Assembly: GCA_963632005.1 (NCBI GenBank)
Contig: CAVGTL010000001.1
Coordinates: 1 to 44,084 of the forward strand
DNA from: Succinivibrio sp.
GTDB taxonomy: Bacteria; Bacillota; Clostridia; Peptostreptococcales; Anaerovoracaceae
Length of the DNA stretch: 44,084 nucleotides
Reading direction: 5' to 3'
The notes below the pieces were generated by a model. That model ran no database searches. It was not told the DNA's origin and saw only the letters and a list, made by a program, of their open reading frames with translations. Shown piece after piece: positions 12,189-34,600 of the stretch. Each line of letters begins with the position of its first letter. Positions within the stretch are counted from its first letter, which is position 1. The position numbers were made by a program, and so were the translations under genes.

Positions 12189-13726
12189 ATTCCTTTATTT
12201 TCCTCCTGAAAAACTATTTCAAATTCAGGCATGGTAAAATTACCGTCTGTGCAGTGGACTACACATTTTTTATTCCTGTCCTCGCAAATGAGCTTATACG
12301 GTCTTCCGTTTTCCGTTTTGGCTGCCAGGTCAGCCGTCTCGAGTGCATCTGAAAGCCATTTCAGCAGTATTTCTCTTATATCCGGCTCTATTACAGGAAG
12401 CTTTGAAAATTCTATACGTCCGTCCTTTTCAAGTGCCGAGACCTTATCCATATCTTTTTTCTGCTTTTCAAGCATCCTGCGTCTGACTTCACGCTTCTTT
12501 TCGGTAGATGCAGTTATAGCGCTCCGCTTTGCTTTTTCTTTGTATGTTCGCACTCGCGGCTTGATAACGAGAGACATCGGCTTTTCATCATATACACTGC
12601 AGTTCATGCTGTCCGTTTCTCTTTCAGGGTCGCCTTCCAGATGATACGGCCTCTCTATGCCAAATACCATGGCTGACATTCTATGCGCTTCATTTATATC
12701 GCTGCATCTGAGAAATATTTCCGCAACTTTTCTGTATTCTTCGCGTCTGTTCGCTCCGAGAGCATTCTTTTCGCTCAGCTGAACGGCATAACGTGTTATT
12801 TTCCTTATTATGTCATTTGTAGCATCAAACAGTCTGGCTGCTTCATTCTCGCGTCCGTCCTGTGCTACGAACCATTCGTATATACTCATGTAACGCCCGC
12901 GCACTCTGTTCTCTATGAGCTCACGTGATATTGCGGCATCCATCCTCGGTATCTGAAGCTCGTGCTCCGTAATTTTTTCTATAATACGCTCGCGCATATC
13001 AGCATCTATGCGTTTAAGCTCTTCTTCTATAACTCCTACATTACGCTGCAGGCTCTTTATGAAATTACGCAGATAATCTGTCAGATGATCCTTGAATACC
13101 ATAAACGCCTTCGTACGCATCATCTCTTCAGCCTTTACGCTGTTAAGGTCGCGCATATAGTCCTGGTAATTCTGGTTCAAGCTCATAAAATCTTTATTAA
13201 GATCATTCCACAGAGAGTATGCCTCATCATCATTCATACCATCGATCTCAGCCAGCTTGCCTGCATTCAGACGTATACGTTCAAGCAGAGTCGGTTCAAG
13301 CGACGCACCTTCTATGAAAAGGTTTTCCAGCCTGAGTACAAGACGCTCTATCTCTACACTGTACTCCGACATCTGATATCTGAATTTCTTATTCTTAAAT
13401 TCTTCTATCGACGATACCCTTCTCGTATCCTGCATTGCATCCAGATTTTTCCATTCAGTCAGCATTGCAAGATCCTGCTGACACTGCTCCGGCCTGTAAT
13501 CCTTAAAATACGGATCCTTTATCATCTCATCGTAAACTTCTTCCTGATACATCCAGTAGTGAAGTCTCTCGTAATTTTCAAAAAATATCCGCATTATACA
13601 GCGATACCTGTCAGCATTTTCTGCATTCAGGTATTTAGCTTCCGTCAGTGGCTTTAAAAGCTTTTCTGTTACTCTCAAATACCCTTTCCCCCATAATTTA
13701 GAATTTTTAGATTTCTTAAATCTCAC
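12185..13726 (-). CDS. jetA: Wadjet JetA-like subunit (DUF2397/TIGR02677-like)
   Basis: 513-aa ORF, first gene of the operon. The true start may be the TTG at 13678, preceded by GGGGGAAAGGG, because the putative -10 element lies only about 13 nt upstream of the 13726 ATG. The assignment rests on position, size and context. Confidence 0.7.
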   Translation of the reverse strand: MRFKKSKNSKLWGKGYLRVTEKLLKPLTEAKYLNAENADRYRCIMRIFFENYERLHYWMYQEEVYDEMIKDPYFKDYRPEQCQQDLAMLTEWKNLDAMQDTRRVSSIEEFKNKKFRYQMSEYSVEIERLVLRLENLFIEGASLEPTLLERIRLNAGKLAEIDGMNDDEAYSLWNDLNKDFMSLNQNYQDYMRDLNSVKAEEMMRTKAFMVFKDHLTDYLRNFIKSLQRNVGVIEEELKRIDADMRERIIEKITEHELQIPRMDAAISRELIENRVRGRYMSIYEWFVAQDGRENEAARLFDATNDIIRKITRYAVQLSEKNALGANRREEYRKVAEIFLRCSDINEAHRMSAMVFGIERPYHLEGDPERETDSMNCSVYDEKPMSLVIKPRVRTYKEKAKRSAITASTEKKREVRRRMLEKQKKDMDKVSALEKDGRIEFSKLPVIEPDIREILLKWLSDALETADLAAKTENGRPYKLICEDRNKKCVVHCTDGNFTMPEFEIVFQEENKGI

Positions 13727-16616: not shown

Positions 16617-17975
16617 ATGCTGTTTAAACGAAAAATATACGATAAATTCCTCGCATGGAAAAACAACGCCAACGGCAAAAAAGCCCTGCTCGTAGAGGGT
16701 GCGCGCCGCATCGGAAAATCTACAATAGTGGAAAATTTCGCCCAAAATGAATACAAAAGCTATATACTCATAGACTTTGCAATAGCGTCAGAAAATATAA
16801 AACAATATTTCAATCTGTATCTCAACGATCTCGATACATTCTTTATGCTGCTTTCAATACAATACGGAGTTCAACTGTACCCACGCGAAAGCGTTATCAT
16901 TTTTGACGAGGTCCAGCTGTTTCCAAAGGCACGCGAAGCAATCAAATATCTCGTTGCAGACGGCAGATATGACTTTATTGAGACAGGCTCTCTCATATCC
17001 ATAAAAGAAAACGTACAGAATATAGTTATCCCTTCCGAAGAACGACAGATAAAAATGTACCCTATGGATTTTGAGGAATTCTGCTGGGCGCTCAACGAAG
17101 CTCCCCTCATCGCATATATCCGCGATTGCTTTGATAAAAAAATACCGTTGGAGCGCGGCATCCACGAAAAAGCCATGCTCCTTTTCAAACAGTATATTTT
17201 AATCGGCGGCATGCCTATGAGTACTGCCGCGTTTTTGGAAAATCACAGGGATTTTGGCAGAGCCGATCTGGAAAAACGGGATATCCTCTCACTCTACAGA
17301 AATGACATCATGAAGATAAATGCACAGTATCGTTCAAAAGTCATGACGATATTCGACCAGATCCCCGGTCTGCTGTCGCGCCATGAAAAAAGAGTCGTCT
17401 TCAACCGCATAGACAAGGGCTCTTCAGCCGAACAATATGAAGAAACATTTTTCTGGCTCTCAAACTCAATGATAACAAACGAGTGCAGACGCGCAAATGA
17501 CCCAAACGTCGGACTTTCGCTGAACGAATCTGACACGTATATAAAATGCTATATGGGTGACACCGGCCTGCTCGTCAGCCATGCCTTTGATGAAAACGAG
17601 CTGCTTGAGGACGAAGTCTACAAACAGATAATCAACGGCAAGCTAGGCCTTAATGAAGGAATGCTCTACGAAAACGCAATAGCGCAGATGCTGACCGCCA
17701 ACGGCCACCGCCTTTTCTTCTACACACACTACAACGCAGAAAAAAAACGCAATGACATAGAGATAGACTTCATAATATCAAACAACAGCAAACTCCAATA
17801 CAAAATATACCCTATAGAGGTAAAATCAGGCATAAAATACTCAACAACATCGCTCCTGCGCTTCAAAGAAAAATACAACGACCGCATCGGCTGCTGCTAC
17901 ATCATCCATCCTAAGAACCTGTCAATAAAAGACGACATCATCTGCATCCCGCCGTATATGACTATATGCCTTTAG
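16617..17975 (+). CDS. AAA-family ATPase of the COG1373 type (AAA_14 + DUF4143-like)
   Basis: Walker A GARRIGKST and Walker B IIFDEVQ. The size and C-terminal pattern are typical of DUF4143 proteins as I recall them. AAGGAGG RBS present. Confidence 0.75.
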   Translation: MLFKRKIYDKFLAWKNNANGKKALLVEGARRIGKSTIVENFAQNEYKSYILIDFAIASENIKQYFNLYLNDLDTFFMLLSIQYGVQLYPRESVIIFDEVQLFPKAREAIKYLVADGRYDFIETGSLISIKENVQNIVIPSEERQIKMYPMDFEEFCWALNEAPLIAYIRDCFDKKIPLERGIHEKAMLLFKQYILIGGMPMSTAAFLENHRDFGRADLEKRDILSLYRNDIMKINAQYRSKVMTIFDQIPGLLSRHEKRVVFNRIDKGSSAEQYEETFFWLSNSMITNECRRANDPNVGLSLNESDTYIKCYMGDTGLLVSHAFDENELLEDEVYKQIINGKLGLNEGMLYENAIAQMLTANGHRLFFYTHYNAEKKRNDIEIDFIISNNSKLQYKIYPIEVKSGIKYSTTSLLRFKEKYNDRIGCCYIIHPKNLSIKDDIICIPPYMTICL

Positions 17976-18046: not shown

Positions 18047-18490
18047 CTAATCCAACAAATACCCTGCCTCATAAGAGCACTCAAGATAACTTGGATTTTC
18101 ACAGTACAGCCCTGTTCTGAAATCTGATATCTCATCGCTTATAAACGAATTGAACAACTTTAAAGCCTCGTTTACCTCATCCCCTGCTACTGCACAGTCG
18201 ATTATCATATCACAATACAACTTGCCTATCGCCGTATATGACGGGATCCTTTCACGGCAGCCCGTTATCGTATCAAAATCACCGTCATTTATACCGTACT
18301 CTTCTATAACTTCATCAGATACCTGCTCAAATGAAAGGCAATGATTAACTGCAGCATCCTGAAGCTGATCCTCTATCCCCCGCGCGCCCAGCGCGCCCAC
18401 GACCGCTCCGCGTCTGTTCTTCGTAACACGTCCTATATACTCGATAAGCGAGCACACATAAAACAGATCATTCCTTCTTTCCGCTGTCAT
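18047..18490 (-). CDS. DUF3791-like protein
   Basis: 147 aa. The N-terminal LFYVCSLIEYIGRVTKNRR pattern matches my recollection of DUF3791. GAGGTG RBS lies inside the upstream gene, with a 23-nt overlap. Confidence 0.6.
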   Translation of the reverse strand: MTAERRNDLFYVCSLIEYIGRVTKNRRGAVVGALGARGIEDQLQDAAVNHCLSFEQVSDEVIEEYGINDGDFDTITGCRERIPSYTAIGKLYCDMIIDCAVAGDEVNEALKLFNSFISDEISDFRTGLYCENPSYLECSYEAGYLLD

Positions 18491-18923
18491 AATATACCAC
18501 CTCGCTCTTTATGAATTTCAGACATTTTAAAGCTGCCAGCGTGTGAAAACTTATCTGATGTGTTGGATATTTAAACCTTGCTAATGCCCAAAATTGTTCC
18601 TTGCTGAGATCAAAATTCCACACGGTATCATCCGCCATAGGTCCTTCAACAATATCATACTTATGCAGATCACCTCTGCGGCATTTAGCTATAAAATCAA
18701 GCCACTCATCAGTCATCTCATCAAACTTCAGCATAGCTAATTTTTCATCCGGTGTATATTCATAATAATTTATTATCGGCGTTCCTTTTCCTCTGTTTGC
18801 CCAACGCACCGCCTGTTGGAAATTCAACGTACAATAAAACCCCCACGAAAAATCCTTCGTATATTTAGCCATCCTTATCTCAGGATACTCAACGATTTCT
18901 TTACTTGCATGATATAAGATCAA
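18468..18923 (-). CDS. DUF3990-like protein
   Basis: 151 aa. MILYHAS ... GFYCT ... VEGPMADD matches the DUF3990 N-terminal pattern as I recall it. TTG start at 18923 with AGGAG 10 nt upstream. Confidence 0.6.
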   Translation of the reverse strand: MILYHASKEIVEYPEIRMAKYTKDFSWGFYCTLNFQQAVRWANRGKGTPIINYYEYTPDEKLAMLKFDEMTDEWLDFIAKCRRGDLHKYDIVEGPMADDTVWNFDLSKEQFWALARFKYPTHQISFHTLAALKCLKFIKSEVVYYDSGKKE

Positions 18924-19149: not shown

Positions 19150-19476
19150 TTACCTCCAACCAAGCCGATCAAGTAATTGGTTTAGTTCTTTGATATACCT
19201 TTTGGCCGTGATATGATCCAAATTTGGATTTGGCACATATTTTTCAATATCAGACGTACGATATTCGTATTCCGGGTGCCAAAAAGCTTCACAAATCTTC
19301 CAGATTCGATTTTCATCCTCGTTACAAGTTTTCGTACATATTAAACGGTACTTTTCATTGTTCTCTGGAGAGTATATGCGTTTTAATATACTGCGAAACT
19401 CGTTTGTTGTATTCCAGTCCATATCTGCAAACCCATCTTTAGCGCTCTTTTGTAAGTTCCTCATCAATTTCCGCAA
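19150..19476 (-). CDS. small hypothetical protein, fourth gene of the SPFH operon
   Basis: 108-aa ORF between the zinc-ribbon gene and the operon terminator. Position 19476 is a TTG, and alternative ATG starts lie at 19464 and 19422. I recognise no family motif. Confidence 0.5.
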   Translation of the reverse strand: MRKLMRNLQKSAKDGFADMDWNTTNEFRSILKRIYSPENNEKYRLICTKTCNEDENRIWKICEAFWHPEYEYRTSDIEKYVPNPNLDHITAKRYIKELNQLLDRLGWR

Positions 19477-20536
19477 TTCTCACATTAGCAGCATCAATCT
19501 GTACCTGAATAGGCGAAACAACATCTTCTCTACTTGCTTTTGCTTTCTCTAAATCGTCAGATGCAAGCTTATCGATTCGCTCTTGAAGTGCCTTCTTTTC
19601 CTTTCCCTTGAAAAGACCCAACGCAGATTTTTCTTGCTGTAACGCTTGAATCTTCGCTTCAATTTGTTCTTCTGCTTTTACCTCAGGCAAAGATGAAATC
19701 TCGGCGTTCAAGTTTTCAACTTTTGCTGATAAAGCTTCCCGCTCTTGGTCAAGGGCTGCTTTTTCCTCAGTATGCTCAGACCAATAAGCAGAAATTGCTT
19801 TAGCTTTTAATGCTTCAAGCTCTCTTTTTTCTTCGTCAATCCACCCTTGCAAAAAGTCCTTTTTCCAGTAATCGGTCGCCATGGCTACTGTATAAAATGC
19901 AATCGCGGCCGCATGTAAATACGGCTGGTCATCAATCTTCTGGATATTGTCCATTGTTTCTTTGAACGCATCCAAAAGACCAGAAAACATCTGTATTGTT
20001 TCGCCTTTGTTGGTTCGCGTGACCACTCCATAGCCGTTTTTCCATTCAGTAAAAACAAAATTGCTACACACCATTTTTCCGAGATCAATTCCCATCGAAA
20101 TGATAGCCTGCTTATTCTCTTCTCTGCGTTCAGGTTTGTAGTGATCATCAACAACAGAAATACAATTCTTTAGGACTTTGAAAGTCGCAGCTCTCTTGTA
20201 AACATCACCATCTGTCAAAGAAGCCTTTGCTTTTCCATAGGAGCTGTAAAAGATAGCTTCAATATTATCGGGGTCATTTTGCTCGACCATATTGTAGTAT
20301 TTTTCAGTTTCCTCCCAGTCTTCCTTTTCTTTTGCACGTCGAGCATTGGCAAGATACTTTTCGACAAAAGCGCTGTTATCCACTTTAACAGTACCCTGAA
20401 CATCAACAGTACCTTCAATCATCATTTTCTTAGCCTCTTCTATGGAATACTTACATCCACAACTTTGGCATACAAACACACCACCATCTTTAATTAGATC
20501 CGTGCTACCACACATTTCACAAGTTAACTGTTTCAT
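19439..20536 (-). CDS. zinc-ribbon protein with TPR-like helical region and C-terminal coiled coil
   Basis: N-terminal CEMCGSTDLIKDGGVFVCQSCGCKY is a CxxC...CxxC ribbon. It is followed by an EKYLANARRAKEKEDWEETEKYYNMVEQNDPDNIEA TPR-like repeat. The last roughly 120 aa are heptad-rich (EALKAKA..., LQQEKSAL...). AGGAGG RBS present. Confidence 0.75.
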   Translation of the reverse strand: MKQLTCEMCGSTDLIKDGGVFVCQSCGCKYSIEEAKKMMIEGTVDVQGTVKVDNSAFVEKYLANARRAKEKEDWEETEKYYNMVEQNDPDNIEAIFYSSYGKAKASLTDGDVYKRAATFKVLKNCISVVDDHYKPERREENKQAIISMGIDLGKMVCSNFVFTEWKNGYGVVTRTNKGETIQMFSGLLDAFKETMDNIQKIDDQPYLHAAAIAFYTVAMATDYWKKDFLQGWIDEEKRELEALKAKAISAYWSEHTEEKAALDQEREALSAKVENLNAEISSLPEVKAEEQIEAKIQALQQEKSALGLFKGKEKKALQERIDKLASDDLEKAKASREDVVSPIQVQIDAANVRIAEIDEELTKER

Positions 20537-20552
20537 TTTTCATTCCTCCTAC

Positions 20553-21221
20553 TTACTTCAGAATTTTAATTTTTCTGTTACGCTCATCCAAAAGCAAACT
20601 GATTTCATTAATAATCTTCATCATACTAATGCCTTTTTTCAATTCAGCAGCTTTCTCTATAATCTGTTTTTCCAAATCTGTCAGTCGCTCATCACTTACA
20701 GGATCAGAAAAGCGTACCTTTTCTGCAAGCTGCATTAGTGCCGATTTTATTACTATATCAGTCTCAGAGTTGGCCAATACTTCGATTTCAACTTGCAACT
20801 GTTTAACAAAAAAGACTTTTCCTTGAACCTTTGCAGATACCCTTTCAATTTCATTACGTCCTACACTTGAACAAATCATACAAAACGCAGATACACCTGC
20901 AACCGCTGCACAGATAATAACTGCAGCCCAAACAGGAAGTGTTTGAAAAGATTGAAATATTATAAGTAAAATGATTTGAATTACGAGATATATAATACCA
21001 ATATTAACGATTGGGAATCCCATGAATTTACTTTTCAATGCTTCATCGCTCCTAAAAGCTACTTTCCAAATGATTATCTGAGCAGCAAATGCAATTACTG
21101 TAAATGCATAAGAAACCCAAAAGGCTGCGTTTTTTACCGACGGAACAGCAATAGAAATTATAGTTATTAACACAAACATAATGCCAAGAATAACATAGCC
21201 TTTTGTTCGATTATTTTTCAT
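20553..21221 (-). CDS. integral membrane protein (about 4 TM helices) with a cytoplasmic helical C-terminal domain
   Basis: Four hydrophobic segments are followed by an amphipathic helical tail (ALMQLAEKVRFSDPVSDERLTDLEKQI). I moved the start to the ATG at 21221 because GGGAGG lies 7 nt upstream, 2 nt after the SPFH stop. Confidence 0.7.
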   Translation of the reverse strand: MKNNRTKGYVILGIMFVLITIISIAVPSVKNAAFWVSYAFTVIAFAAQIIIWKVAFRSDEALKSKFMGFPIVNIGIIYLVIQIILLIIFQSFQTLPVWAAVIICAAVAGVSAFCMICSSVGRNEIERVSAKVQGKVFFVKQLQVEIEVLANSETDIVIKSALMQLAEKVRFSDPVSDERLTDLEKQIIEKAAELKKGISMMKIINEISLLLDERNRKIKILK

Positions 21222-21223
21222 TA

Positions 21224-22396
21224 CTAATCCTCCCGCCTTGTCCCACATTTAGGACAAAACTTACCAGGTTTGATAAATTTGAACCCACATCTAATACAAA
21301 TGTCATGAGTTGCCTGCGATGCGCCGCATTCATCACAGAATAACGCTCCTGGTGTCAGTTCAGCTCCACATTGGTCGCAAAAACGGTTCACCGTTGCCTG
21401 CGGCTGAGTAGTTATTCCTGTAAATGCATCAGATACAGCACCTCCAACCATTCCACCGACTGTTCCACCTATACCAGTCATCATTCCCAGTCCAATACCC
21501 ATACTTGAAAACTGTCCGCTTCCCTCATTTTTCGCTACATCCTGCGCTACATCGAATCCACGCTCCTGTTGATATGTATAACCTTCCTGTATTCGCTTAG
21601 TTGCCTGAGCCTGAGAATCAATTATAACTTTCTGTGCCTCAGTCTGTGCATTGATCACATCAGTCTGCTGTTTCAGCTTTGCCTCTGCAATATCAGCATA
21701 CTGGCGAAAATGCAGTTCCTTAAACTTTTCATACTGCGAGTCGCCATCTGGTTTGACCACAGTAGTTACATAAAAACGCTTCAGCTGTATACCATAATCA
21801 AGAAAATCCGGAATTAACCTCCGCTTGATACCTTCCGAAAAGATTTCAAGACTTTCATCAATTTCAAATATATTGATTGCATTGGCTCGCATTGTCTGAG
21901 CAATATATGTTTTTACCTTCGACATCAGAATGCTACGAAAATATGTCACCAACTGCTGTCGATTTAAAATATGCTCTGTTCCGACCAATTTGACTAATAC
22001 TTTACGGGAATCATCCACGCAAAGTGACATCTCACCACTTGCACCAATGGAAATAGGAAATTTATATGTAGGCTCTACATACTGCACCTTACTATCTGTT
22101 CCCCAACGAATTGCCATTTGTTCAGTCTTATTTATGAAATATATTTCGCAATGAAATGCACTAACGCCTCCCGTCGGTATATTAATCAGATGACGTAGAA
22201 TTGGTATATTCTCCGTTTCCAATGTATGCCGTCCCGGGCCAAACAAATCAAGTGCCTGCCCATTTAAAAAGAGAATTGCTTCCTGTGATTCGTGGACGAT
22301 CAACTGAGATGATGTATTAAAATCCTCACAGGGGTGCTTCCATATGAAGGTACTATTATCACCTTCATATTTGATAACGGAAGCAATTGATGCCAT
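21224..22396 (-). CDS. SPFH/band-7 family protein with C-terminal double zinc ribbon (COG4260 / YdjI-like)
   Basis: The N-terminal pattern VIKYEGDNSTFIWKHP...LIVHESQEAILFLNGQALDLFGPGRHTL is typical of the COG4260 SPFH group. There is a Q/A/K-rich coiled coil, a Gly/Met-rich segment (GIGLGMMTGIGGTVGGMVGG), then CDQCG...CDECG and CIRCG...CPKCG. AAGGAGGG RBS present. Confidence 0.8.
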   Translation of the reverse strand: MASIASVIKYEGDNSTFIWKHPCEDFNTSSQLIVHESQEAILFLNGQALDLFGPGRHTLETENIPILRHLINIPTGGVSAFHCEIYFINKTEQMAIRWGTDSKVQYVEPTYKFPISIGASGEMSLCVDDSRKVLVKLVGTEHILNRQQLVTYFRSILMSKVKTYIAQTMRANAINIFEIDESLEIFSEGIKRRLIPDFLDYGIQLKRFYVTTVVKPDGDSQYEKFKELHFRQYADIAEAKLKQQTDVINAQTEAQKVIIDSQAQATKRIQEGYTYQQERGFDVAQDVAKNEGSGQFSSMGIGLGMMTGIGGTVGGMVGGAVSDAFTGITTQPQATVNRFCDQCGAELTPGALFCDECGASQATHDICIRCGFKFIKPGKFCPKCGTRRED

Positions 22397-22411
22397 AGCT
22401 TAGCCCTCCTT

Positions 22412-22439
22412 CGTTTTTAATAGTGTACTTTTCCAAAAC
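22412..22439. promoter_or_regulatory. candidate serine-recombinase crossover site L (hix-like, core GT)
   Basis: Sequence CGTTTTTAATAGT GT ACTTTTCCAAAAC. Each 13-bp half-site matches site R at 10/13 positions by hand alignment. It lies directly upstream of the SPFH gene RBS. Confidence 0.5.
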
Positions 22440-22546
22440 CATATTTTATAATATGCAGAGCATAATAATTTTTCTAAAATCCATAAAATGATTGAAAATT
22501 ACTACTATAGCATATATACTTTAATTAGATTTATTATCACTGCATT

Positions 22547-22574
22547 AGTTTGTAAAAGTACACTTTTACAAACT
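22547..22574. promoter_or_regulatory. candidate serine-recombinase crossover site R (hix-like, core AC)
   Basis: Sequence AGTTTGTAAAAGT AC ACTTTTACAAACT. The 13-bp arms are perfect inverted repeats around a 2-bp core. It starts 3 nt past the recombinase stop codon. On the minus strand no U-run follows, so it is not a canonical terminator. Confidence 0.55.
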
Positions 22575-22577
22575 ATT

Positions 22578-23276
<699 letters not shown>

Positions 23277-23468
23277 TTATCGCCTTTAGCACGCCGGGTA
23301 CGCATTTTTCGCTGTCTGTTGCACCCTTGTTTCAAATATATTTTCAAGGTATTATTTTATTTTTATTCCATTATATGGTTGACATGATTATTTTCAAATG
23401 TTATTCTTAATTGTAATTTTATTACATATCACAAAAGAGGTACAGTATTTCACAGAAAGGATTAGACT

Positions 23469-24380
23469 ATGACTGAAAAAAACATTTTCTCAGAAGCATA
23501 TACCAACGATATATGCAAGGTATTCGATGATAACATTCATTACAATGCACAGCTGTCCACAAGTACTGACAACGGCGGATTCAAGCGCCTCAGAGATGCA
23601 AACCTGTCGGACAACTTCATGTTCGCCAAGGTAATGAGCGATCCGACTGTCTTAAAAGAATTTCTCCAAATCGTCCTCGGTATCAAGATCCGCCGCATCG
23701 TAATGACGCAGTATGAAAAAACTATATTTCCTGACCCGGCAGCAAAAAGTATTCGTTTGGACGTTTATGCTGATGACAGCCAAAACCGCAAATACAGCGT
23801 TGAAATGCAGGGGTATGTTGAATATAATATAGGCAGGAGGAGCCGTTACTATCAGAGCGTTATCGACATCGATTCACTCTCACGCGGTCAGGGCTACGAA
23901 AAGCTCAGTGATGCATTCGTCATATTTGTATGCACTTACGATCCGTTTGGTGCCGGTATGCAGAAATATGTATTTCAAAAGCGCTGCATCAACGCAGGCA
24001 GTGACATCATGCTTAATGACGGTGTATCTACTGTCATACTGACAGACAACAGCGGCGATTCTGTCATAAACGAGTTTTTCAAGTATCTGAAAAACTCCAC
24101 ATATGAAGAAGCTGAACGCAGCGAAAGTAGGCTCATCAAGCTTATCAATCAAAAGGTAGAAAAAGTACGCTTCGATCCTGCGCTGGAGGTAGAGTATATG
24201 AGATTTCAGGAATTACAACGTGAACAGTTCAATAAAGGTCGCGAACAGGGCATTGCTGAAAAACAGTTAGCTATCATAAAAAACATGTTAAATATGGATA
24301 TGAACGATGATACGATACAGACTGTAACCGGCTGCACCGTAGAATACCTTGCAGCTGTTAAACAAAGTATGGTTAATTAA
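23469..24380 (+). CDS. Rpn family recombination-promoting nuclease / putative PD-(D/E)XK transposase
   Basis: The N-terminal SDNFMFAKVMSDPTVLKEFLQ and RLDVYADD...YSVEMQ nuclease-core pattern is typical of the Rpn/YhgA-like family. Confidence 0.75.
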   Translation: MTEKNIFSEAYTNDICKVFDDNIHYNAQLSTSTDNGGFKRLRDANLSDNFMFAKVMSDPTVLKEFLQIVLGIKIRRIVMTQYEKTIFPDPAAKSIRLDVYADDSQNRKYSVEMQGYVEYNIGRRSRYYQSVIDIDSLSRGQGYEKLSDAFVIFVCTYDPFGAGMQKYVFQKRCINAGSDIMLNDGVSTVILTDNSGDSVINEFFKYLKNSTYEEAERSESRLIKLINQKVEKVRFDPALEVEYMRFQELQREQFNKGREQGIAEKQLAIIKNMLNMDMNDDTIQTVTGCTVEYLAAVKQSMVN

Positions 24381-24487: not shown

Positions 24488-27400
24488 TTAATTTTTTCTG
24501 TTTTTCCTTACACGGAAATAGCCGCCCATGATTATCACAATCATGACAACTGCAAGTGTCAACGCCGCAGCGACCGGATTTTCAGCTATAGTTTTCTGAA
24601 CGAGCTCATACACCTTATCCGGCGAACCTTCTGAAGGAAGCTGTTCCTCGCCATGCTGCTCTTCTCCTGCATTGCTCTGCGAGCTTACCTCTATATCAGA
24701 ACCTGTCTGACCTGCTTCCGCGTCAGCGCCGCCTTCTGCAGACGGTGCAAGTGACACGCCACCGTCAGCAGATCCTGTAGCGTAGCCTGTACCCGATGTT
24801 GAGATAAAGTAATCCTTCTGACCGTCAAGTCCATGTCCGAAGAACTGTCCTATAGACACGCCTCTGTTCAGAAGCTCCTGAAGTATAGGGTAATAGTGCC
24901 TGTCAAAGTTAGCATCGACATACAGGTGATATGTACTGAGTATATTACCTGTGAAATGTATTACCGTATCGTTGCCAAATGCATTTTTGTCGAGCGTAGT
25001 AAGCGTCTCAGGCAGATAAACCTCAGATAAAGCTGTATTTGCGAAAGCATTTTTAGCTATCTGTTTCACGCCTTCTTTAAACAGCACATAACTCATGGAG
25101 CTTGCCCCGTTAAATGCGTTCTCGTATATCCTTTCAAGCGAAGTCTGAGAAAGATCTGCAAACAGCAATGACGTACAGCCCTGAAATGCCCCCGGCATTA
25201 TTATCCTGAGCTTTTTATTGAAATTTACGACTCTCAGCGATGTGCAGCCCTTAAACGCATTCTCATAAATGCCATCAAGTTCTGAAGGTAATTTAACGCT
25301 TACGAGACTCGTATTATCTGCGAACGCATTTTTTTCTATGCTCACTACAGGATATCCTGCCACCTCATCCGGTATCACAAGGTCTGCTGCGGCATTGCTG
25401 TTTGCTGTCAGACACTTAACTCCGGCTTTTGTGCTGAACTCTCCGTTGGTTTCTGAAAAAGACAGCTTATAGTCAAGTCCGCCGTATGAGGCATATACGC
25501 TGCCATTATATGCTCCGTATATGTCCTGACGCGTATTTTCTGTATAGAACTTCATTCCCGCAGGTACCGGATATTTATCTGAAGCTATATATAAACAGTA
25601 CTTTGTATACTTTTCTGCATAAGAGCCTGACGGGCATACAAAGCGCAGAACCCCCATATTGCTGCAGAAAAACGCTCCGTTATCTATGTGCTGTACGCTC
25701 GCCGGGAGTGTGACAGTCTTCAGCGACTCGCATCCGGCAAACGCATTGGCATCTATGGTCTTTATGCCCTCTTTAAAATTAACATCCGTAAGTCCTGTAC
25801 ATCCTGAGAATGCAGCTTTCCCTACAGCTGTTACAGTAGAAGGGATATCGACCGTCTTAAGGCCTGTACAGTTCATAAACGCTCTCACGCCTATCTGAGT
25901 TACGCCCTCCGGTATCGTTATCTTTTCAAGACCGCTGTTTGAAAACGCATCATCACCTATAGTTCTGATGTTTGACGGAACTGTATATTCCTTTATCGCC
26001 TTATTTCCTGTAAACAAACCTTCCGGTATTGATGTCCATGAAGCCGGCATATTTATCGTCTCAAGGCTCGAATTTCCATAAAGTGCCTTTTCTTCCAGCT
26101 TAGTCTCTTTAAGACCTTCAGGCAGCTTCAAAGATATCAGTCCGGCTTCCGAAAGCGATTCTTTTCCTAAAGATGTAATATTATCTGAAAGCGTTAAATT
26201 CAACTTTCCATTGCATCCGGCAAGGAAATAATCAGGTATGCCTGTCCAGTTTTTCGGGATATTTATCTCTTTCAATGAACTGCAATTCACAAAAGTACTC
26301 TTGTTATATACTATTCTCTTAGTATTCTGATTCTTTACATATCCTTCTCTGTCCTTCGATTCTCTTGAAAGCCAGAAGCTGTCAGAGCTGAGTCCTTCCG
26401 CAAGCGTTACATTTTCAAGTCCGCTGCCGTCAAATACGTACGCCTGTATCTGCTGCAGTGATGCAGGAAGCGTCACAGACCTGAGCGACGTACATTTGCT
26501 GAATGCATCTGAGCACAGTACTTCAAGCTTTTCCGGCAGCTTTACATCACTGAGACTGCTGCACCCGCTGAATGCGAAACTGTGTATCACCTTAACACTG
26601 TCAGGTATCGATGCCTTTTTTACAGAAGTACAGCCGGAGAAGATTCCTTCCGGTATCTCTGTTATTCCATTTGCAAATGAAACATCAACAAGTGATGAGC
26701 AGCCTGCAAACATGTCTGTACCTGCTTCTTCAAGAGCCGATACTTTTACAGATGTCAGCGATGTACAGTCCTCAAATGCACTGCTGCCTATCTTCGTCAC
26801 ACCGCTCGGTACCGAAATATCTTTCAGAGCAGCACAGCCCTTAAACGCAGCCTCGCCTATCGATGTAAGACCGTTTCCGAACGTTACTTTTTCAAGCTTT
26901 TTGCAGTTGTAAAATGCACGCGCTTCTATCGTCTTAACAGAACCCGGGATCACGACTTCTTTTATCGCTGTTTCCGAGAAAGCTCCTGTACCTATAGTCT
27001 CAAGCCCGTACGGAAGCGTTACCGACCTTATAGCGCTGTTTCCGCCAAAGCCGCTCACATAAGAAAGATCCTTACTGTTCTGTAATGATATCTCCTTAAG
27101 CGCAGCGCATCCCTTGAATGCTCCGCTTCCAATGTATTCCAAACTCTTTGGGAGCACGAGCTCATCGACTGAGGAGCATCCTTCAAATGCATTAGCTTCT
27201 ATGCGCTTAACTCCCTCCGGTATTACGATCTTTTCCAGAGTAGTTATTTCACTGAATGCTCCCTGCGGTATACGATCCATACCTGACGAGAGTCTGAGCT
27301 CAGTTACAGGACAGCCTTTGAACGCATTTTTTCCGACTTCTGTCACATTTTCGGGAAGTGTCAGTGTTCCGCTCAACGGACAGTTTGCAAATGCTTCTGC

Positions 27401-28651
27401 GCCTATCTTTGTAAGGCTCGCCGGAAGCTTCATATTATTCGGCAGCGGGCATTCGATGAATGCCTGCTTGCCTATCTCTGTAACACTGTTAGGTAAGACC
27501 ACATCTGACAGCGAATTACAATAGCCGAATGCTCTTTCGGGTATTACCTTAAGATTTTTTGATATACGCACATGCTTAAGCTGCTTGCATGAAAGAAACG
27601 ACATCGTGCCGATTTCAGTGACCGAATCCGGCATATCGACAGCCGTGACTGCCGTGCCGTAAAACGCGCTGTCTCCTATGTATGTCAGTCCGTCAGCCAT
27701 ATTCGACGCAGTAAGCAGCTTGCATCCGTAAAATGCCTTACTCCCTATCCGCGACACTGCCGGTAATGAATCGAGCTCAAGCGCGCTGCATCCCTCAAAC
27801 ATGCTTGCCGGTATTGCCTTGCAGCTCTTCGGCAGCGTTGCTTTTTTCAAAGCTGTACAGCCCTTGAACAGTCCTTCCGCCATGCTGAAGTCAACAGAAT
27901 CGGAAATACTTACAGAATTAAGCGCCTTACAGCCTTCAAAAGCCTCTGCACCTATAGTTTTCAGACCATCAGGCAATACGATACCGGACAGAGCCGTGCA
28001 TGACTGAAACGCCGCCTTACCTATCGAAGTAATGCCTGAAGCCAGCTTTACATTCTTAAGAGCCGTGCATTCGCTGAACGCTGATTCTCCTATCGAGCCG
28101 GCTGAAATGTCAGCGCTTGTCAGTCTGCTGCATTTTCTGAACGCAGCGTCGCCTATTTTTGAAGCATTTACTTTTATCTCAGTCAGGCTGCTGCAGTTAA
28201 AAAATGCTCTTCTGCCGACTGAAACTCCGTTGTTTCTGATCGTAATATTCTTTAATCCTGTACAGCACGAAAAAGCATTAGCACCTATGCTTTCCACGCT
28301 TTCAGAAAGCGTGACTGATGTAATGCCCGCACAATATAAAAAGGCATGATCATTTACAGCCTTGACCGGCATCCCCTTTATGCTTGCAGGAATGCTCATT
28401 GCGCCCTTTGCTGCTTCGCTGCAGCTCATGATAGTCACTGCACCGTTATTTATGTTGTACGTCAGCAGACCGTATTCATCCTGATACATCCCTGCCTTTT
28501 TATTTTCCAGCTTCAGCTCACTGTCGATATCATAATAATATTCTTCTGCGGTAGAAAGTATCGGTATCAATATCAGCAATAAAGCTATCGCTGCGGCAGG
28601 CAATATCGTCAGTAATATAAAACGTATATCTCTTTTTTTACTGTCCTTCAT
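24488..28651 (-). CDS. giant BspA-type leucine-rich-repeat surface protein, N-terminal signal/anchor and C-terminal TM anchor
   Basis: 1387 aa. There are dozens of repeats of about 23-25 aa of the form xAFxxCxxLxxVxLPxxVxxIGxxAF. An N-terminal hydrophobic segment is present. The C-terminus has an acidic/Gly-rich spacer, a TM helix and an RKNRKN tail. AAGGAGGGGG RBS present. Confidence 0.85.
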   Translation of the reverse strand: MKDSKKRDIRFILLTILPAAAIALLLILIPILSTAEEYYYDIDSELKLENKKAGMYQDEYGLLTYNINNGAVTIMSCSEAAKGAMSIPASIKGMPVKAVNDHAFLYCAGITSVTLSESVESIGANAFSCCTGLKNITIRNNGVSVGRRAFFNCSSLTEIKVNASKIGDAAFRKCSRLTSADISAGSIGESAFSECTALKNVKLASGITSIGKAAFQSCTALSGIVLPDGLKTIGAEAFEGCKALNSVSISDSVDFSMAEGLFKGCTALKKATLPKSCKAIPASMFEGCSALELDSLPAVSRIGSKAFYGCKLLTASNMADGLTYIGDSAFYGTAVTAVDMPDSVTEIGTMSFLSCKQLKHVRISKNLKVIPERAFGYCNSLSDVVLPNSVTEIGKQAFIECPLPNNMKLPASLTKIGAEAFANCPLSGTLTLPENVTEVGKNAFKGCPVTELRLSSGMDRIPQGAFSEITTLEKIVIPEGVKRIEANAFEGCSSVDELVLPKSLEYIGSGAFKGCAALKEISLQNSKDLSYVSGFGGNSAIRSVTLPYGLETIGTGAFSETAIKEVVIPGSVKTIEARAFYNCKKLEKVTFGNGLTSIGEAAFKGCAALKDISVPSGVTKIGSSAFEDCTSLTSVKVSALEEAGTDMFAGCSSLVDVSFANGITEIPEGIFSGCTSVKKASIPDSVKVIHSFAFSGCSSLSDVKLPEKLEVLCSDAFSKCTSLRSVTLPASLQQIQAYVFDGSGLENVTLAEGLSSDSFWLSRESKDREGYVKNQNTKRIVYNKSTFVNCSSLKEINIPKNWTGIPDYFLAGCNGKLNLTLSDNITSLGKESLSEAGLISLKLPEGLKETKLEEKALYGNSSLETINMPASWTSIPEGLFTGNKAIKEYTVPSNIRTIGDDAFSNSGLEKITIPEGVTQIGVRAFMNCTGLKTVDIPSTVTAVGKAAFSGCTGLTDVNFKEGIKTIDANAFAGCESLKTVTLPASVQHIDNGAFFCSNMGVLRFVCPSGSYAEKYTKYCLYIASDKYPVPAGMKFYTENTRQDIYGAYNGSVYASYGGLDYKLSFSETNGEFSTKAGVKCLTANSNAAADLVIPDEVAGYPVVSIEKNAFADNTSLVSVKLPSELDGIYENAFKGCTSLRVVNFNKKLRIIMPGAFQGCTSLLFADLSQTSLERIYENAFNGASSMSYVLFKEGVKQIAKNAFANTALSEVYLPETLTTLDKNAFGNDTVIHFTGNILSTYHLYVDANFDRHYYPILQELLNRGVSIGQFFGHGLDGQKDYFISTSGTGYATGSADGGVSLAPSAEGGADAEAGQTGSDIEVSSQSNAGEEQHGEEQLPSEGSPDKVYELVQKTIAENPVAAALTLAVVMIVIIMGGYFRVRKNRKN

Positions 28652-28673: not shown

Positions 28674-31600
28674 TTAACGTTTACTCTTGCGATAACGATG
28701 GTACCCGCCTGTTATTACGAGGATCAGCAGGATGATCAGTACAAAAGCTCTGACAAAAGGATTTTCCATGACACTTTCATGTATCACTTCAAATACAGTA
28801 TCATTTTTCTGTTCCTCTTCATCTTCTTTTTCCTGTTCTTCCTCTTCAATATCACCGCTGCTCTCTGGTGCGCTTTCAGCCTCCATCTGTTCTGGAGTCT
28901 GATCCTCTACATCTGTTTCCTTCTGTATCTCTTCAGTCTCCGGAACAGTTATTACAATAGTATCTGCATCAGTCGGATGATCTGAAACTGTCGGTATATT
29001 ATCATCAGTTGACGGTATCGTATCTGTATCGTTATTTTTGCCGCCATTACTTATGTCAGTACCGTTGGCGTCAGGATCTGTGCCCTGGCCACCGTTGCCG
29101 TTTTCATTGCCGTCACCCTTATCGCCATCACCGCTGCCTGAATCTGAGCCGCTGTCACTTGAATCATCTTTTGGCTTTTCTTCTTCTTCTTCGACAAACT
29201 TATAAGTCAGTAATGAATCTATATTTTCATTAAATATGATGTTACCTTCGCTTACTACCTTGTCATTAAGCTTAAGAGAGTCCAGAGTTGACTTTTCGCC
29301 GGCAGTGGCTGTTACAGACACTGTATCACCATAAGGTACATACAGTGTTTCATTCTCGCCCGAAATGCTCCTGTCTCTGAAGCTTACAGTTACCTTGCCG
29401 CCCTTTGAATCTGCATCTGCCTTTACTCTTAAAAGGTAATATGAAGGACTTCCTAATGCCGGATATCCTGCCGACTCATCCTGAGTCCATACATTTCTGT
29501 GAGTAGCTGTACCGCCGTCGAGCCTGTAAGCGATCTCACCGCTTGTAAATGCGCTGCCTGCAGCCCAGCCTGAAGGTATCTGAGAATCGTCTGTGAATGA
29601 ATCCTTATTCCAGCCTGCAGCTCCGTAATAGCAGTTTTCCATACTGCCTGAAGCGCCTGATGCTGCAACTGCCTTAAGCTCATGCAGTTTGTCGCTGTAT
29701 GTCTTTGAGTAGAAATATGAATTTGTAATGCTGCCGCTGTTGCTTCCTGCAATGGCACCAACATTTACGTTTTTACCTTCATTTGAAAGGCCTCCGACAG
29801 CCAGGCTGTCTGTAACTGTACCCGTATTATATCCTACGAGTCCGCCTACATTATTAACAGTCGTATCCGGCTCTTCAGATAGCTTTATCATTATTGCATC
29901 GCCGTCAACTCTGCTTTCGCATTTTTCTATCTTACCGCCCTTATTGTAGCCAACAAGTGCGCCTACGCCGTTTTCTGACTTATAGAACTCTGTGACTTCG
30001 ATCTTTCCTGAGTTTTTGCTTCCTTCTATAACGCCGTTTTCAGAAGCTATCTTTCCTGCAAGTCCGCCTACCGTACCGGCCTTAAAGAGTCCGTTTTCTT
30101 CAGGCGCTATGTTGCCTGAGTTGTTGCAGTTTTTCATTTCTCCGTATAATACGGATGCTATGCCTCCGGCTGTTACACCGTAAGTGAGTGAATTGTCGGA
30201 AGTGTCAACAGCTATATTTCCGGTATTGCTGCAGCCCTCGATATTGAGTGCCTGACCTGCTATACCGCCGACACGCTTTGCTGTGCCTGTCACCTTTATA
30301 TCGCCGGAATTGCTGCTTTCTGTTATCTTGCTGTCAGATGCAGCAAAGCTTGAAATGTAGCCTGCTATACCGCCTGCATATGAGTAATTTGCGGATGTAG
30401 TTGATTCTACTTCAACAGTTCCTGTATTTTCTGCATTTTCTATTATAATAGTCCTGCCGTTGAGCGCATATCCCAGGATACCGCCGATATTGGCGTATAC
30501 TTTCTTTTCGCTCTTTGAAGTATTTTCAGGAACAGATATATTACCTGAATTCTTTGCGCCGGATATAGATATCTGACCTGAGCCATATGATGTATTTCCT
30601 ATAATACCGCCTGTATGACCTGCGCCGAGAGAGCCCTCAGACGCTGCAAGTGTGATATTACCGGTATTTTCGCAGTTCAGTATTTTAAGATCTGTCTCTG
30701 TATTCTGCTGTACATTTGCCACTATACCGCCTGCCTGATATGCAGCAGTAATATTTCCATTATTTATACAGTTTTCTATTATATTTACAGACGGTCCTGT
30801 TACAGTTGCAGCTATACCTCCTGCTATGCTGACTGCGCCTGATCCGCTGCCTACTATATTAATATTGTTTGTACAATCAGCTATCGTTCCGCCTTTTGCC
30901 TCATATACGATACCGCCTATGCGTCCGACAAAATATCCGTCTACCGGATGTATATCGCCTGATGTATTACAGTTTGATATATTTCCTTCATTAGAGTATG
31001 CTATACCGCCTATGCATGTCAGATATTTTCCGCTTTCGCCGGCAGTGTTAAGCTCTACCGTACAATCCTTTATAGTTGCACCTTCATGGTTTGCATAAAC
31101 AAGTCCGCCTGAATATGCAAACTTATCAACTGCATCGATATCGTTTGAGCAGTTTGAGATCAGGCCATAGTTGTCTGCTGCCAGTCCTGCCCAGTGTGCA
31201 GTAGTACCGTCTACATCCGTATCAAGATCAGCTGCCGAAAGCTTCAGATTCTCGACAGTTCCGTCTTTACCGATCGTTCCAAACAGGAGATCAGTGTCAG
31301 CTGATGGATTTTTCATTAATGTTATAGTGTGACCGTCGCCGTCAAAATTACCATTAAATTCCTTTATATAGAATTTACCTGCATTGCTGCCGGAAAGATC
31401 AAGGTCTGTGCTGAGTTTAAAGCTGCGTCCGTCAAATGTCTCACCGCTCTGTGATAATGCTGCTATCTTCTGCAGTGTCTGAATATCATTTATTTCATAC
31501 GGTATAGCGTCATCGCTGTTATCGAGAAGAGTTTCCTTTATATCCCACTGTGCGTAAAGGTTCAGGATACCGTTTTCATAATCGGCTGTAGTGAGCGTCT

Positions 31601-34600
31601 TTGTGAAATCCCATAAAGCTCCGCCTGAAGGCTCTGTAGACCAGCCCTTCAGCGTGTATACGCGATATACAGCGTCACTGCCTGAAATCTTCACATTATA
31701 AACGAGCTTTCCGTCTGAAACATACTCTGACCAGCCTGTCTGTGTAAGAGTGATCGGATCCGGTACTGCTCTGTTTTCGCCGACACGCTGCTGTACAGGC
31801 ACTGATAATCCGCTGAGCTCCTTCTCTGTATCGTTGAGCGAGAATATTACATCTACGCCAAGTCCGAGCCATGAAGCAGTTATCGTCATATCTTCTGTTA
31901 CAACGGTCTTTGTATCAAACGCTTTGCCATCGCAGAGCCAGCCGTTAAATTTAAACTGGTCGCTTTCAGGTTTGAGCTGATCTGCATATTTCTTGAAATC
32001 AGCTGTTGCTTCGAGGCTGCTGTCGCCTGCTACGCTTACAGTTACAGTAGAAGCGCCGTTTTCAAAGCTTCCGCCGTTTGCATCTAAAGTTACCTTATGA
32101 GCATCCGAAGATGATGCCGCGAAGTCAGCGCTTACAACAACATCGACAGCAGGCATTGAGAATGTAACATCATCACTTCCGCTGCCGCTCGCATATGAAT
32201 TTCCTGATGCGTCCTTTACAGTCATAAGCTTTAATACATATCCGCTGTCAGCCGTTGCCTTCAGGGTAACTGAGCTTCCTTCAGGTGCATATACATATGC
32301 GCTGTCATCTTTATTGTCAAGTGAAGCTTTTCCTGCAACCTCTGCAGAGAGCTTTCCGTTAGCTGTTCCCATTGTCAGCTTTACAGCATATACAGGCTTG
32401 AGTGAGTTGTCAAAGTTTATAAGTTCTGGGCATTCCTTACTCTGACCCCATATACCTGCTCTTTCGCCTGCACCTCCGTCAAGAAGGTAAGCGATCTCTC
32501 CGCCTGAGAGCTGGTCGGTGCTTACTGCCGTAAGTACATCCTTATCTGTAAATGCCTTTGAGCCGATGATGCCTGAAAGTGCATAGCACTTATCTGTTAC
32601 CGTGCCCTTAGGTACAGTCAGTATTCCGCCGACAGCAGTATAGTTCGTTCCCGCTGTTATCGAGCCGCAGCTGAAGCAGTTCTTTACAGTGAGCTTTGAT
32701 GCAGTACCTGCATTTGTAAGGATGCCGCCTGCCTGTGATGCGCTTGTCGTACCGGTCGCCTTCAGCGTTCCTGCACTATAGCAATTCGTTACAGTAACTG
32801 CTTTTGAAGAAGACGGCTGTACACGACCCAGCAGAGCTCCGACATACTTGTTCTGACTTGTGATATTTCCTGTATTGTAGCACCTGTCTACGATTATATT
32901 AGATGTAAGAGGGCCTGTCAGTCCACCTGTAGTGTGGCTTGTGCCCTTGCCTGTCGTGATATCTCCGCTGTTGTAGCTTCTATATATATTGATATCTGTA
33001 GTTCCGTATCCTATAAGGCCGCCTGCATTACCGAGAGCCTTTATCTCGCCTGTATTATTACTGTCTGATATCGTAACGTATGATTTAGCATATCCGATCA
33101 GACCTGATACGTACTGTTGTGAAGACGAATCGATAACAGCTGTATTACTACAGCCTTCAACAGATATCGCCATACTTTCTGCTGATGCGTATGTATAGCC
33201 TGTCATGCCTCCGACATATTGCTTAGTCGCCTTTATGTCTCCATTATTTATACAGTTGACAAAGTCTGCTGCAGCAGCATTCTTAGATACTACGCCTACC
33301 GCAGCGGTCATACCTCCTGTATAATCGACGCCTGTTAACTTTCCGTTGTTAATGCAGCCGTCAAAGAGATAACGTACGATACTGTCTGTCGCTGTATCCG
33401 CTACAGAATGGCCTGCGATACCGCCTGTATAGCTTGAAGTACCCTTTATCTCGCCGCTGTTTTCACAATCCTTAAATATTACCTTCATTGCGGCTGATGC
33501 GCTTATGTGACCGACTATACCGCCTGTTTCTTTTCCGTTTCCGGTAATTTTTCCTTTATTAATTACATTCCGGAATGCAGCTTCATTTTCAGGAAGCTCA
33601 GACTTCATTACTATACTGCCGATGACGCCTCCTGTATTTCCTGTACCTGTTACAGTACCTTCGTTTACGCAATTCTTAATGCGTACATTGCTGTCGGCCT
33701 GGCCGACGATACCGCCTGTATTATTCGTTCCTGTTACATTCATTTTTGAAGTAACATCTGAAATTTCAACGACTTCATCACCTGATGCAATGTGACCGAC
33801 TATACCTCCCGTTGCAGATGAGCCTGTTATATTGCCTTCTACTGTAAGGTTTCGGATGCTGCCGCCTGTTACGTAGCCAAAGAAGCCCTGGTCAACAGCT
33901 GCGGCATCGTTTATCTCAACACCTGATACAGTATGACCGTTACCGTCAAAGTTGCCCTTAAACGGCGCTGATGCCGAGCCTATCTGCGGCCACATATAGT
34001 TTTCAGGCAATGTGATGTTTTCCGTCAGCTTTATAGTACAGTTTTCAAATGAAACAGGCTTGCCGTTATTCAGCTGACCTGACGTTATACGAGCAAGCGC
34101 TATAAGCTGTTCGGCTGTAGATATCTCATACTCTGTCTGACCTGCGCTGTACCAGCTGCTGTCTGAAGTTTCTGCCTGCCATTTAGCGCGCAGGTATAAT
34201 GGCTTAAATATACGTGTATTTGCAAAGTCAAATTTATCTGACGCTACAGATTCACTTTCCTTGCCCGGATCTGTTACGAGATACCATCCGTTAAGGCTGT
34301 AATCATCACGTACAGGCATATATGCCTCTGCATATTCGCCCAGGCCTACAGGAACTGTTACATTTTCAACAGGCTGCCCGTCTGCCTCGTAGTTCAGATC
34401 ATATGTTATCTCGATAGGTACGAGCTTCCATTCAGCATGTATCTCGGTGCCTGATTCAAATACATCATCAGCGAAGTTTACTTTTCTGCCGTCTGCATAA
34501 TACCAGCCGTCAAAAGAAAAGCTCTCTTTGTTGCTCGTTACTGAAGGCTCTGATGTGATCTTACCTTCTTCGCTTAACACTGCTCTGACCCTTGTATCTG

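Follow-up and report, generated by a model that had tools for sequence, protein, structure and literature searches.

A probable invertible promoter, driven by a cis-encoded small serine recombinase, ahead of an SPFH operon in Clostridia

A 181-bp spacer between a small serine recombinase gene and the SPFH gene downstream of it raises the question of whether the promoter in this spacer has a fixed direction or can be turned around. The spacer lies in a stretch of 44,084 nucleotides (contig CAVGTL010000001.1 of the GenBank assembly GCA_963632005.1, named Succinivibrio sp. and placed in the Clostridia by GTDB), and this whole stretch is called the window below. An earlier note, made from the sequence alone, had proposed that inverted crossover sites beside the serine recombinase gene flank an invertible promoter for the SPFH operon. 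This proposal is borne out by homologous loci, which keep both sites and carry the segment between them both ways round between identical flanks. We therefore consider it highly probable that the spacer is a site-specific invertible promoter (inverton) for the SPFH operon, driven by the small serine recombinase that is encoded in cis.

Crossover sites and inversion in related loci

The elements of the switch, with their positions in the window, are as follows (ORF, open reading frame; RBS, ribosome-binding site).

23370-23397, minus strand: candidate promoter of the recombinase gene, TTGAAA-16-TATAAT, 11/12 in a consensus scan, a pattern match only
22578-23246, minus strand: serine recombinase ORF, 222 aa, presumed invertase in cis, immediately upstream of the switch and read in the same direction as the cargo
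22547-22574: site R, the recombinase-proximal crossover site, AGTTTGTAAAAGT-AC-ACTTTTACAAACT, 13+2+13 with perfectly palindromic arms, core AC (plus strand) at 22560-22561
22546-22585, plus strand: state-dependent terminator-like hairpin, a 13-bp stem from site R with the tail TTTTATATTT, facing the outward promoter in the OFF state; termination is inferred
22425-22561: invertible segment, core to core, spacing 135 bp
22492-22520, plus strand: switch promoter TTGAAA-17-TATACT, 10/12 in the scan, pointing away from the operon in the assembly (OFF)
22476-22448, minus strand: weak TAGAAA-17-TATTAT, 9/12 in the scan, pointing into the operon in the present orientation
22412-22439: site L, the cargo-proximal crossover site, CGTTTTTAATAGT-GT-ACTTTTCCAAAAC, core GT at 22425-22426, inner half-site conserved and outer half-site degenerate
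22404-22409, minus strand: RBS GGAGGG of the SPFH gene, 2 nt past site L, read from the sequence
21224-22396, minus strand: SPFH ORF, separated from the recombinase ORF by the 181-bp spacer

On re-reading the sequence, the coordinates and sequences that the earlier note had given for sites L and R were all correct, and its half-site match (10/13 and 10/13), its GT and AC cores and its core-to-core spacing were likewise confirmed. A repeat finder returned the L/R pair as a 25-nt inverted repeat that is 88% complementary (arms 22413-22437 and 22549-22573, with 111 nt between them) and found the palindrome of site R to be perfect, with 14+2+14 at 22546-22575; the recombinase ORF ends 3 nt ahead of site R. 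When the spacer was shuffled 300 times with its composition preserved, the best 25-nt inverted repeat reached 19/25, compared with the 22/25 observed. With a 24-nt site pattern and up to three mismatches, the matches in the window were sites L and R only, and 0.00 matches were expected from shuffles. The L/R repeat exceeds chance and is no by-product of AT-richness. An 11-nt stretch, AGTGTACTTTT, is identical in both sites (22422-22432 and 22554-22564), its exact matches in the window are found only there, and the core hexamer of both sites, GTGTAC, is intact and identical. Because the sites are identical in AGTGTACTTTT, the placement of strand exchange is limited to this stretch.

Direct observations of inversion come from the relatives of the window locus. 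The recombinase P0002 is 92% identical, and its locus shows the layout of the window, with flanks that are identical in all assemblies. Between these flanks, the segment stands in the window orientation in five loci (L002, L004, L006, L009, L011) and as the exact reverse complement, with 100% identity, in three others (L003, L005, L007). The junctions are those expected for an exchange inside the shared core, with the outer half-sites fixed and the inner half-sites swapped. When locus groups were defined by flanks of at least 90% identity, 15 groups had two or more members, and both orientations were present in six of them, including a 12-member group with the SPFH cargo; in four of the six, the segments are 99-100% identical once reverse-complemented. 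Furthermore, five contigs (L010, L015, L082, L084, L085) break off exactly at ...ACTTTTACAAA, after the last base that both orientations share, and a further contig, L008, stops where the distal repeat has its inner edge. Because these contigs break at the inner repeat boundary, both orientations were probably mixed within one sample. The exactly shared repeat in L002 is approximately 16 bp long, which is shorter than the k-mers that we assume the assemblers to have used, and therefore the orientation differences are unlikely to be assembly artefacts.

The family was surveyed with the pattern TTTGYAAARGTRTRCTTTTNCAAA-N95-125-TTTGNAAAAGYAYAC, which includes site R and the inner half of site L and leaves the outer L half-site free. 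This pattern returned 27 loci in species-representative genomes, and every one with a class-level label belongs to the Clostridia (Oscillospiraceae, Lachnospiraceae, Acutalibacteraceae, Acetatifactor, Lachnoclostridium and others); a scan of metagenomes returned 36 loci, many of them from the human gut. Nearly all of the related loci have the same layout, which consists of the end of the recombinase gene, 5-35 bp, site R, approximately 111 bp with the promoter, site L and the RBS of a variable cargo. Recombinase homologues with 63-92% identity hold the same position, on the cargo strand, in nearly all of these loci, and close homologues exist in the thousands in gut metagenomes, with a count above 8000. 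The earlier note had considered that homologous loci might keep site R and never site L; site L was found to be kept too. Even its outer half-site, which lies outside the search pattern, keeps TTT..A..GT across 61 loci, and we therefore take site L to be complete, with one of its halves weak.

In 59 of the 61 distinct loci, sites L and R have the same core hexamer, and concerted core variants occur in three loci (GTATAC twice and GTATGC once), with 16 combinations open to the search pattern. This matching of the cores fits the need of a serine recombinase for matching overlap sequences. In L012-L014 and L072, GT is replaced at the centre of both sites by the self-complementary dinucleotide AT. 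With such a symmetric overlap, the sites would lack the polarity by which inversion is normally enforced over deletion.

The genome of the uncultured Clostridiales bacterium UMGS882 contains two family invertons, L034 and L035. No recombinase homologue was found in the 8-kb locus of L034, which hints that the invertase may also act in trans.

Promoters, hairpin and alternative readings

The inner segments of the related loci mostly hold one promoter that matches the consensus at 10-12 of 12 positions (TTGAAA or TTGACA, 17 nt, TATAAT), stands at a fixed offset and faces either the cargo or away from it; in a few divergent loci, the inner promoter scores only 9-9.5. In the window, the corresponding promoter points away from the operon, and this copy is accordingly read as OFF. 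For its ON state, the predicted junctions are AGTTTGTAAAAGT-GT-ACTTTTCCAAAAC and AGTTTGTAAAAGT-AC-ACTATTAAAAACG, and the computed marker sequences are AGTTTGTAAAAGTGTACTTTTCCAAAAC and AGTTTGTAAAAGTACACTATTAAAAACG.

The earlier note had cautioned that site R may be a terminator. A hairpin with a T-tract (22576-22585) is indeed present on the strand of the outward promoter, and this caveat stands as an additional role of the site but not as an alternative to crossover. In the OFF state, the hairpin at site R has a predicted RNA folding energy of -13.8 kcal/mol and was terminator-like by scan; in the modelled ON state, RNA folding places a hybrid R/L site without this hairpin in the 5′ untranslated region (5′UTR). 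Across the family, the mean folding energy of the site-R region is -19.2 kcal/mol in OFF loci (n=34) and -7.8 kcal/mol in ON loci (n=15; Mann-Whitney p = 6e-6), in a comparison of loci that are phylogenetically non-independent. In many OFF loci, the palindrome runs past the recombinase site (atgccctaaa...tttagggcat). These features suggest that the site-R hairpin is a state-dependent terminator, which in the OFF state would keep antisense transcripts out of the recombinase gene and prevent transcripts of that gene from running on into the cargo.

Together, the elements outline a mechanism. Dimers of the recombinase would bind sites R and L and then synapse them, and the enzyme would cut at the central GT/AC dinucleotide and rotate, with the result that the 135-bp segment is inverted. 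In the OFF state, the one strong sigma-70-type promoter of the segment would face the 3′ end of the recombinase gene, and its transcripts would hit the site-R hairpin and T-tract; the same hairpin would also stand between the recombinase gene and the cargo. In the ON state, the promoter would face the SPFH operon, with a 5′UTR of approximately 60-70 nt that runs through the hybrid R/L site and lacks the hairpin. A membrane module of three or four genes would thereby be expressed in a stochastic and heritable ON/OFF manner. Four parts of this mechanism are our inference: catalysis of the inversion by this recombinase, transcription of the operon from the promoter, termination at the hairpin and continued switching of the window copy.

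Several points weigh against a working inverton in the window, in addition to the non-independence of the loci in the folding comparison. Of the 28 positions of site L, 6 do not match site R, and the outer half-site of L is degenerate. For the synapse of a serine recombinase, a loop of 135 bp is tight. Three loci have AT, and thus a symmetric dinucleotide, at the centre, and the exact cleavage position is therefore assumed from the architecture. Finally, the window allele is known only in the OFF state, from two assemblies (the window and L001); exact-protein look-ups with the recombinase, SPFH, membrane and zinc-ribbon proteins led to L001 as the sole further contig, identical to the window, and to no flipped allele. 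Because only the OFF state has been seen for the exact locus, switching of the window copy is extrapolated from the relatives.

A rival reading is that the architecture is real and the window copy is fixed OFF, for example by a drifted site L or a poorly expressed recombinase. We consider a fixed copy unlikely. The mismatches between L and R and the finding of OFF alone agree with it, and locked or decayed copies do exist in the family, as shown by a P0134 allele with a mutated site R that is ON in all of its contigs and by several shortened recombinases. However, the recombinase ORF of the window is complete and retains its catalytic motifs, and both cores are intact and identical. The half-site variants of the window also occur in loci seen both ways, since the TTTGGAAAAGT variant of its site L is present in loci seen flipped (L025 vs L079). 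Moreover, OFF is the majority state even among loci shown to switch, and two assemblies are far too few to indicate a fixed state.

The P0134 SPFH allele (L088-L094) carries a 1-nt insertion beside the R core (GTGTAACTTTT) and is ON in 7/7 contigs from different samples; it looks like a natural locked-ON variant. L021, one of the two loci with discordant cores, has a shortened recombinase and is ON. As natural "controls", the P0134 allele and L021 agree with the model of an invertible promoter. Shortened or frame-shifted recombinase ORFs were seen in seven ON loci (L021, L022, L032, L045, L056, L066, L076) and one OFF locus (L040), a count in which the loci are non-independent and sequencing errors in metagenome-assembled genomes are possible. 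This distribution suggests repeated locking in the ON state by loss of the invertase.

According to the earlier note, inversion would exchange one promoter for another. Both of its hexamer pairs were reproduced by our scan, and the weaker one, with its 9/12 match, does face the operon in the present orientation, as a model of two expression levels would require, in which inversion trades a strong outward promoter for a weaker inward one. However, matches of 9/12 are at chance level in this AT-rich region (5 found vs 4.7 expected). Nor is the -10 hexamer TATTAT conserved in the closest relatives, which read CTTGTTGGG, CTGTTAAGA and CTTGTTTAA at its place, and only one promoter position is conserved family-wide. 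We thus regard the two-promoter model as improbable; the switch is best described, from these comparisons, as ON/OFF without an exchange of two promoters.

It is very improbable that the sites form no inversion switch, a reading in which site R would serve the recombinase gene as its terminator or operator, site L would be similar by chance and the enzyme would be a mobile-element resolvase. In its favour are the perfect palindrome directly after the stop codon, the terminator score of this palindrome on the plus strand and best structural relatives that are resolvases (Sin, gamma-delta). These points are outweighed by a site L kept beside the cargo RBS in all 60-odd related loci, inner segments inverted between identical flanks, co-varying cores, the lack of a transposase or plasmid backbone beside the module and inverted sites that yield inversion and not resolution. 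A plasmid or phage origin of the module was considered and rejected, since plasmid and phage collections held no close match to the recombinase-switch module.

The recombinase and known inversion systems

The recombinase, which we take to drive the invertible promoter, carries the Pfam domain Resolvase (PF00239, E 2.5e-30), and its catalytic motif YVRVSS (Ser10) and the sequence SIDRLGRN align with Sin. Its best solved relatives are Sin/Bin3 (E 7.9e-31), followed by gamma-delta resolvase (1.3e-18) and Gin (7.5e-16). The Sin match (2r0q, 110 bits) covers residues 3-163 of the recombinase, and the Gin alignment covers residues 3-191; because the latter reaches residue 191, a homologous C-terminal DNA-binding domain is present. 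Against the NCBIfam Mpi model NF009949, the recombinase scored 49.1 bits, where the cut-off is 272, and it is therefore no member of the Mpi family. A PADLOC search of the recombinase returned no match. The term "hix-like", which the earlier note had used for the sites, describes their 13+2+13 architecture well but not their family, since Sin/Bin3 matches the recombinase better than Gin does.

With Hin/hix (the fljBA H segment of Salmonella) and Gin/Cin/Pin, the window system shares a small serine recombinase and two inverted sites with half-sites of approximately 12-13 bp and a 2-bp core. As in Hin, the inverted segment bears a promoter that switches downstream genes, and as in Gin/Cin/Pin, the recombinase gene lies beside the segment. 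The Hin/Gin/Cin/Pin segments are 1-4 kb long and require an enhancer, bound by Fis, that lies within the recombinase gene or close to it; Fis is not expected in Clostridia. In contrast, the window segment measures 135 bp, the host belongs to the Clostridia, Sin is closer, and the 3′ end of the recombinase gene, not the 5′ end, adjoins a site. Judged by these features, the window system is outside the Hin/Gin group, although in function it would be a promoter inverton like those of Hin/fljBA and Mpi/capsule.

The Mpi-controlled capsule invertons of Bacteroides fragilis resemble it in their serine invertase, short promoter segments, ON/OFF logic and gut anaerobe host. The B. fragilis segments are approximately 170-230 bp long, and Mpi acts in trans on many dispersed promoters and controls surface structures. 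An inverton of the window family, in contrast, normally has its own recombinase gene directly upstream, and both the repeats and the phylum differ. Sin, Bin3 and the beta recombinase, which originate from Firmicutes, are the closest solved relatives by sequence. This group uses a host HU-like protein and not Fis, and the beta recombinase both inverts and resolves. However, Sin and beta resolve plasmid or transposon dimers at res sites with an accessory site II, whereas the window sites are inverted and chromosomal, and the natural product in the relatives is inversion. No accessory site or mobile-element context was evident at the window switch, although accessory sites were not specifically searched for. 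The RecV switches of Clostridioides difficile (cwpV, flgB) and fimS of E. coli are likewise short elements with ON/OFF phase variation. They are 150-314 bp long and serve envelope proteins, and cwpV works via a terminator that forms in one orientation only, which parallels the state-dependent hairpin at site R; unlike the window switch, these systems use tyrosine recombinases.

A literature search for the repeat sequence and for SPFH together with phase-variable inversion found no relevant paper (the 2019 PhaseFinder paper of Jiang et al. was outside this search), and the searched supplements of the hCom2 inverton catalogue contained no matching sequences. The family of switches is new and apparently undescribed, although the kind of mechanism is well known. 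Large inverton catalogues exist (PMC11892184, PMC11602134), and the family may be present in them without a name. In a paper from 2026, small serine recombinases were found to co-occur statistically with defence genes in Bacillota, and inversion was only speculated (PMC13552941). The E. faecalis protein EF_B0058, a defence bait of that study, was considered as a direct parallel and rejected: the pTEF2 recombinase lies 54 bp from the next gene, which leaves no room for an inverton.

Cargo, neighbourhood and significance

The cargo comprises the following features.

19150-22396, minus strand: cargo operon, four genes
21224-22396, minus strand: SPFH/Band_7_1 protein (Pfam) with a glycine-rich linker and a C-terminal double zinc ribbon
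20553-21221/21248, minus strand: polytopic membrane protein (Pfam scan)
19439-20536, minus strand: protein with an N-terminal zinc ribbon (Pfam)
19150-19476, minus strand: small ORF

Searches of the cargo proteins in PADLOC, NCBIfam and PDB returned no relatives. Behind switches of this kind, the first three genes are found together as a module in at least six species representatives and in the P0031 and P0134 loci, and this SPFH/membrane/zinc-ribbon module has thousands of homologues at 81-89% identity. Cargo behind the family switches is diverse and consists mostly of envelope or surface proteins, among which the SPFH module is the commonest; the other cargoes are zinc-ribbon membrane, VWA, Big_2/beta-helix, pilin-like N_methyl, Cu_amine_oxidN1/Big_2, SHOCT and LOR proteins. 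When the window is compared with its two closest relatives that have another cargo, homology stops at 22414-22419, the outer edge of site L, and restarts only at the DUF3990 or AAA_14 genes. Because homology ends at the outer edge of L, we take the switch as the conserved unit and the cargo as the part that is exchanged. An exchange of cargo via recombination at the core of site L was also considered, and the position of the homology break, off the core, gives it no support.

In Bacillus subtilis, YdjG/YdjH/YdjI (SamGHI) form a system in which one component is recruited by two membrane proteins encoded alongside (PMC8581546). The likeness concerns the cargo only: the same three ingredients are present, and the comparison is one of architecture alone. 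The window cargo differs in that it has no pspA gene and another gene order.

The same cargo stands behind other candidate switches. Ahead of the closest SPFH homologue (L095, 89% identity) lies a tyrosine recombinase (Phage_integrase), and two perfect 22-bp inverted repeats (ACATAATCGGTATTATGTTGTA) enclose approximately 236 bp directly upstream of the SPFH RBS (L095:889-1168); no clear promoter was found inside this repeat-flanked segment. An 87% homologue (L096/L097) has a divergent serine recombinase and related sites, and its internal TTGACT-18-TATAAT (11/12) points away from the cargo. With these candidate invertons, the SPFH module seems to have come under control by inversion on more than one occasion, by serine and by tyrosine recombinases.

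A more compact look-alike follows a distantly related small serine recombinase on the E. faecalis plasmid pGTC3 (NZ_KY303941.1; L086:3027-3148). Its sites are GTAAAAAAAGGT-AG-ACATTTATTTCC and the palindromic ACTGGAAATAAAAGT-CT-ACTTTCTTTTCCAGT, approximately 95 bp apart from core to core, and an internal TGTATAAT aims at an Rrf2 regulator and an LRR protein. The pGTC3 sites and the window sites have the near-core motif AAAAGT-NN-ACTTT in common.

Around the switch and its cargo, the window contains a complete Wadjet-like (JetABCD) plasmid-defence operon at 5659-13726 on the minus strand, with the following genes.

12185-13726, minus strand: DUF2397 gene
11001-12188, minus strand: DUF2398 gene
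6911-11026, minus strand: SbcC/SMC-like protein of 1371 aa
5659-6927, minus strand: DUF3323/DUF2399/JetD_C gene

Just downstream of the cargo, a DUF3990 gene (18468-18923) and a gene for a 147-aa partner (18047-18490) match PADLOC PDC-M10A/B, and an AAA_14/DUF4143 ATPase gene (16617-17975) matches PDC-S01. Because candidate defence genes adjoin the cargo, the switch can be said to sit in a defence-island-like stretch. Upstream of the recombinase lies a full-length gene of the PDDEXK_2 (Rpn-like) transposase family (23469-24380, plus strand); this gene is reduced to its 3′ 230 bp, an ORF of 80-83 aa, in the P0002 and P0004 relatives, and the P0008 loci have a 307-aa copy. Two giant ORFs follow on the minus strand at 24488-28651 (1387 aa) and 28674-38804 (3376 aa). 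The former encodes a BspA-type leucine-rich-repeat protein (LRR_5, E 3.7e-262) with a hydrophobic end that, by eye in the translation, resembles a membrane anchor.

A broader reading, which we put forward tentatively and with considerable doubt, is that the recombinase, site R, the promoter and site L form a self-contained portable cassette that occurs widely among gut Clostridia and was joined time and again to different sets of envelope genes, and that the SPFH module is a costly system of phage defence or envelope remodelling. The support for it is indirect: the SPFH module apparently stands under at least two unrelated classes of recombinase (serine, and tyrosine in L095), and the window module lies among Wadjet, PDC-S01 and PDC-M10 genes. 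If this reading is true, promoter inversion in cis would provide a mechanism, in this clade, for the link between recombinases and defence that has been reported (PMC13552941).

For Clostridia, which are hard to manipulate genetically, the locus would offer a compact and fully specified switch that consists of a gene of approximately 0.7 kb and a 163-bp site-promoter-site unit. Promoter invertons are textbook knowledge, and what is understood of their mechanism comes nearly entirely from Proteobacteria and Bacteroides. Natural ON, OFF and locked variants of the present family are already on record. The switch would also mark a very common and uncharacterised gut membrane module as one that is expressed in a subpopulation only, and such expression would be a strong hint of a costly function that is exposed to phage or host. 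The cassette could serve, in addition, as a ready-made genetic toggle for the engineering of Firmicutes.

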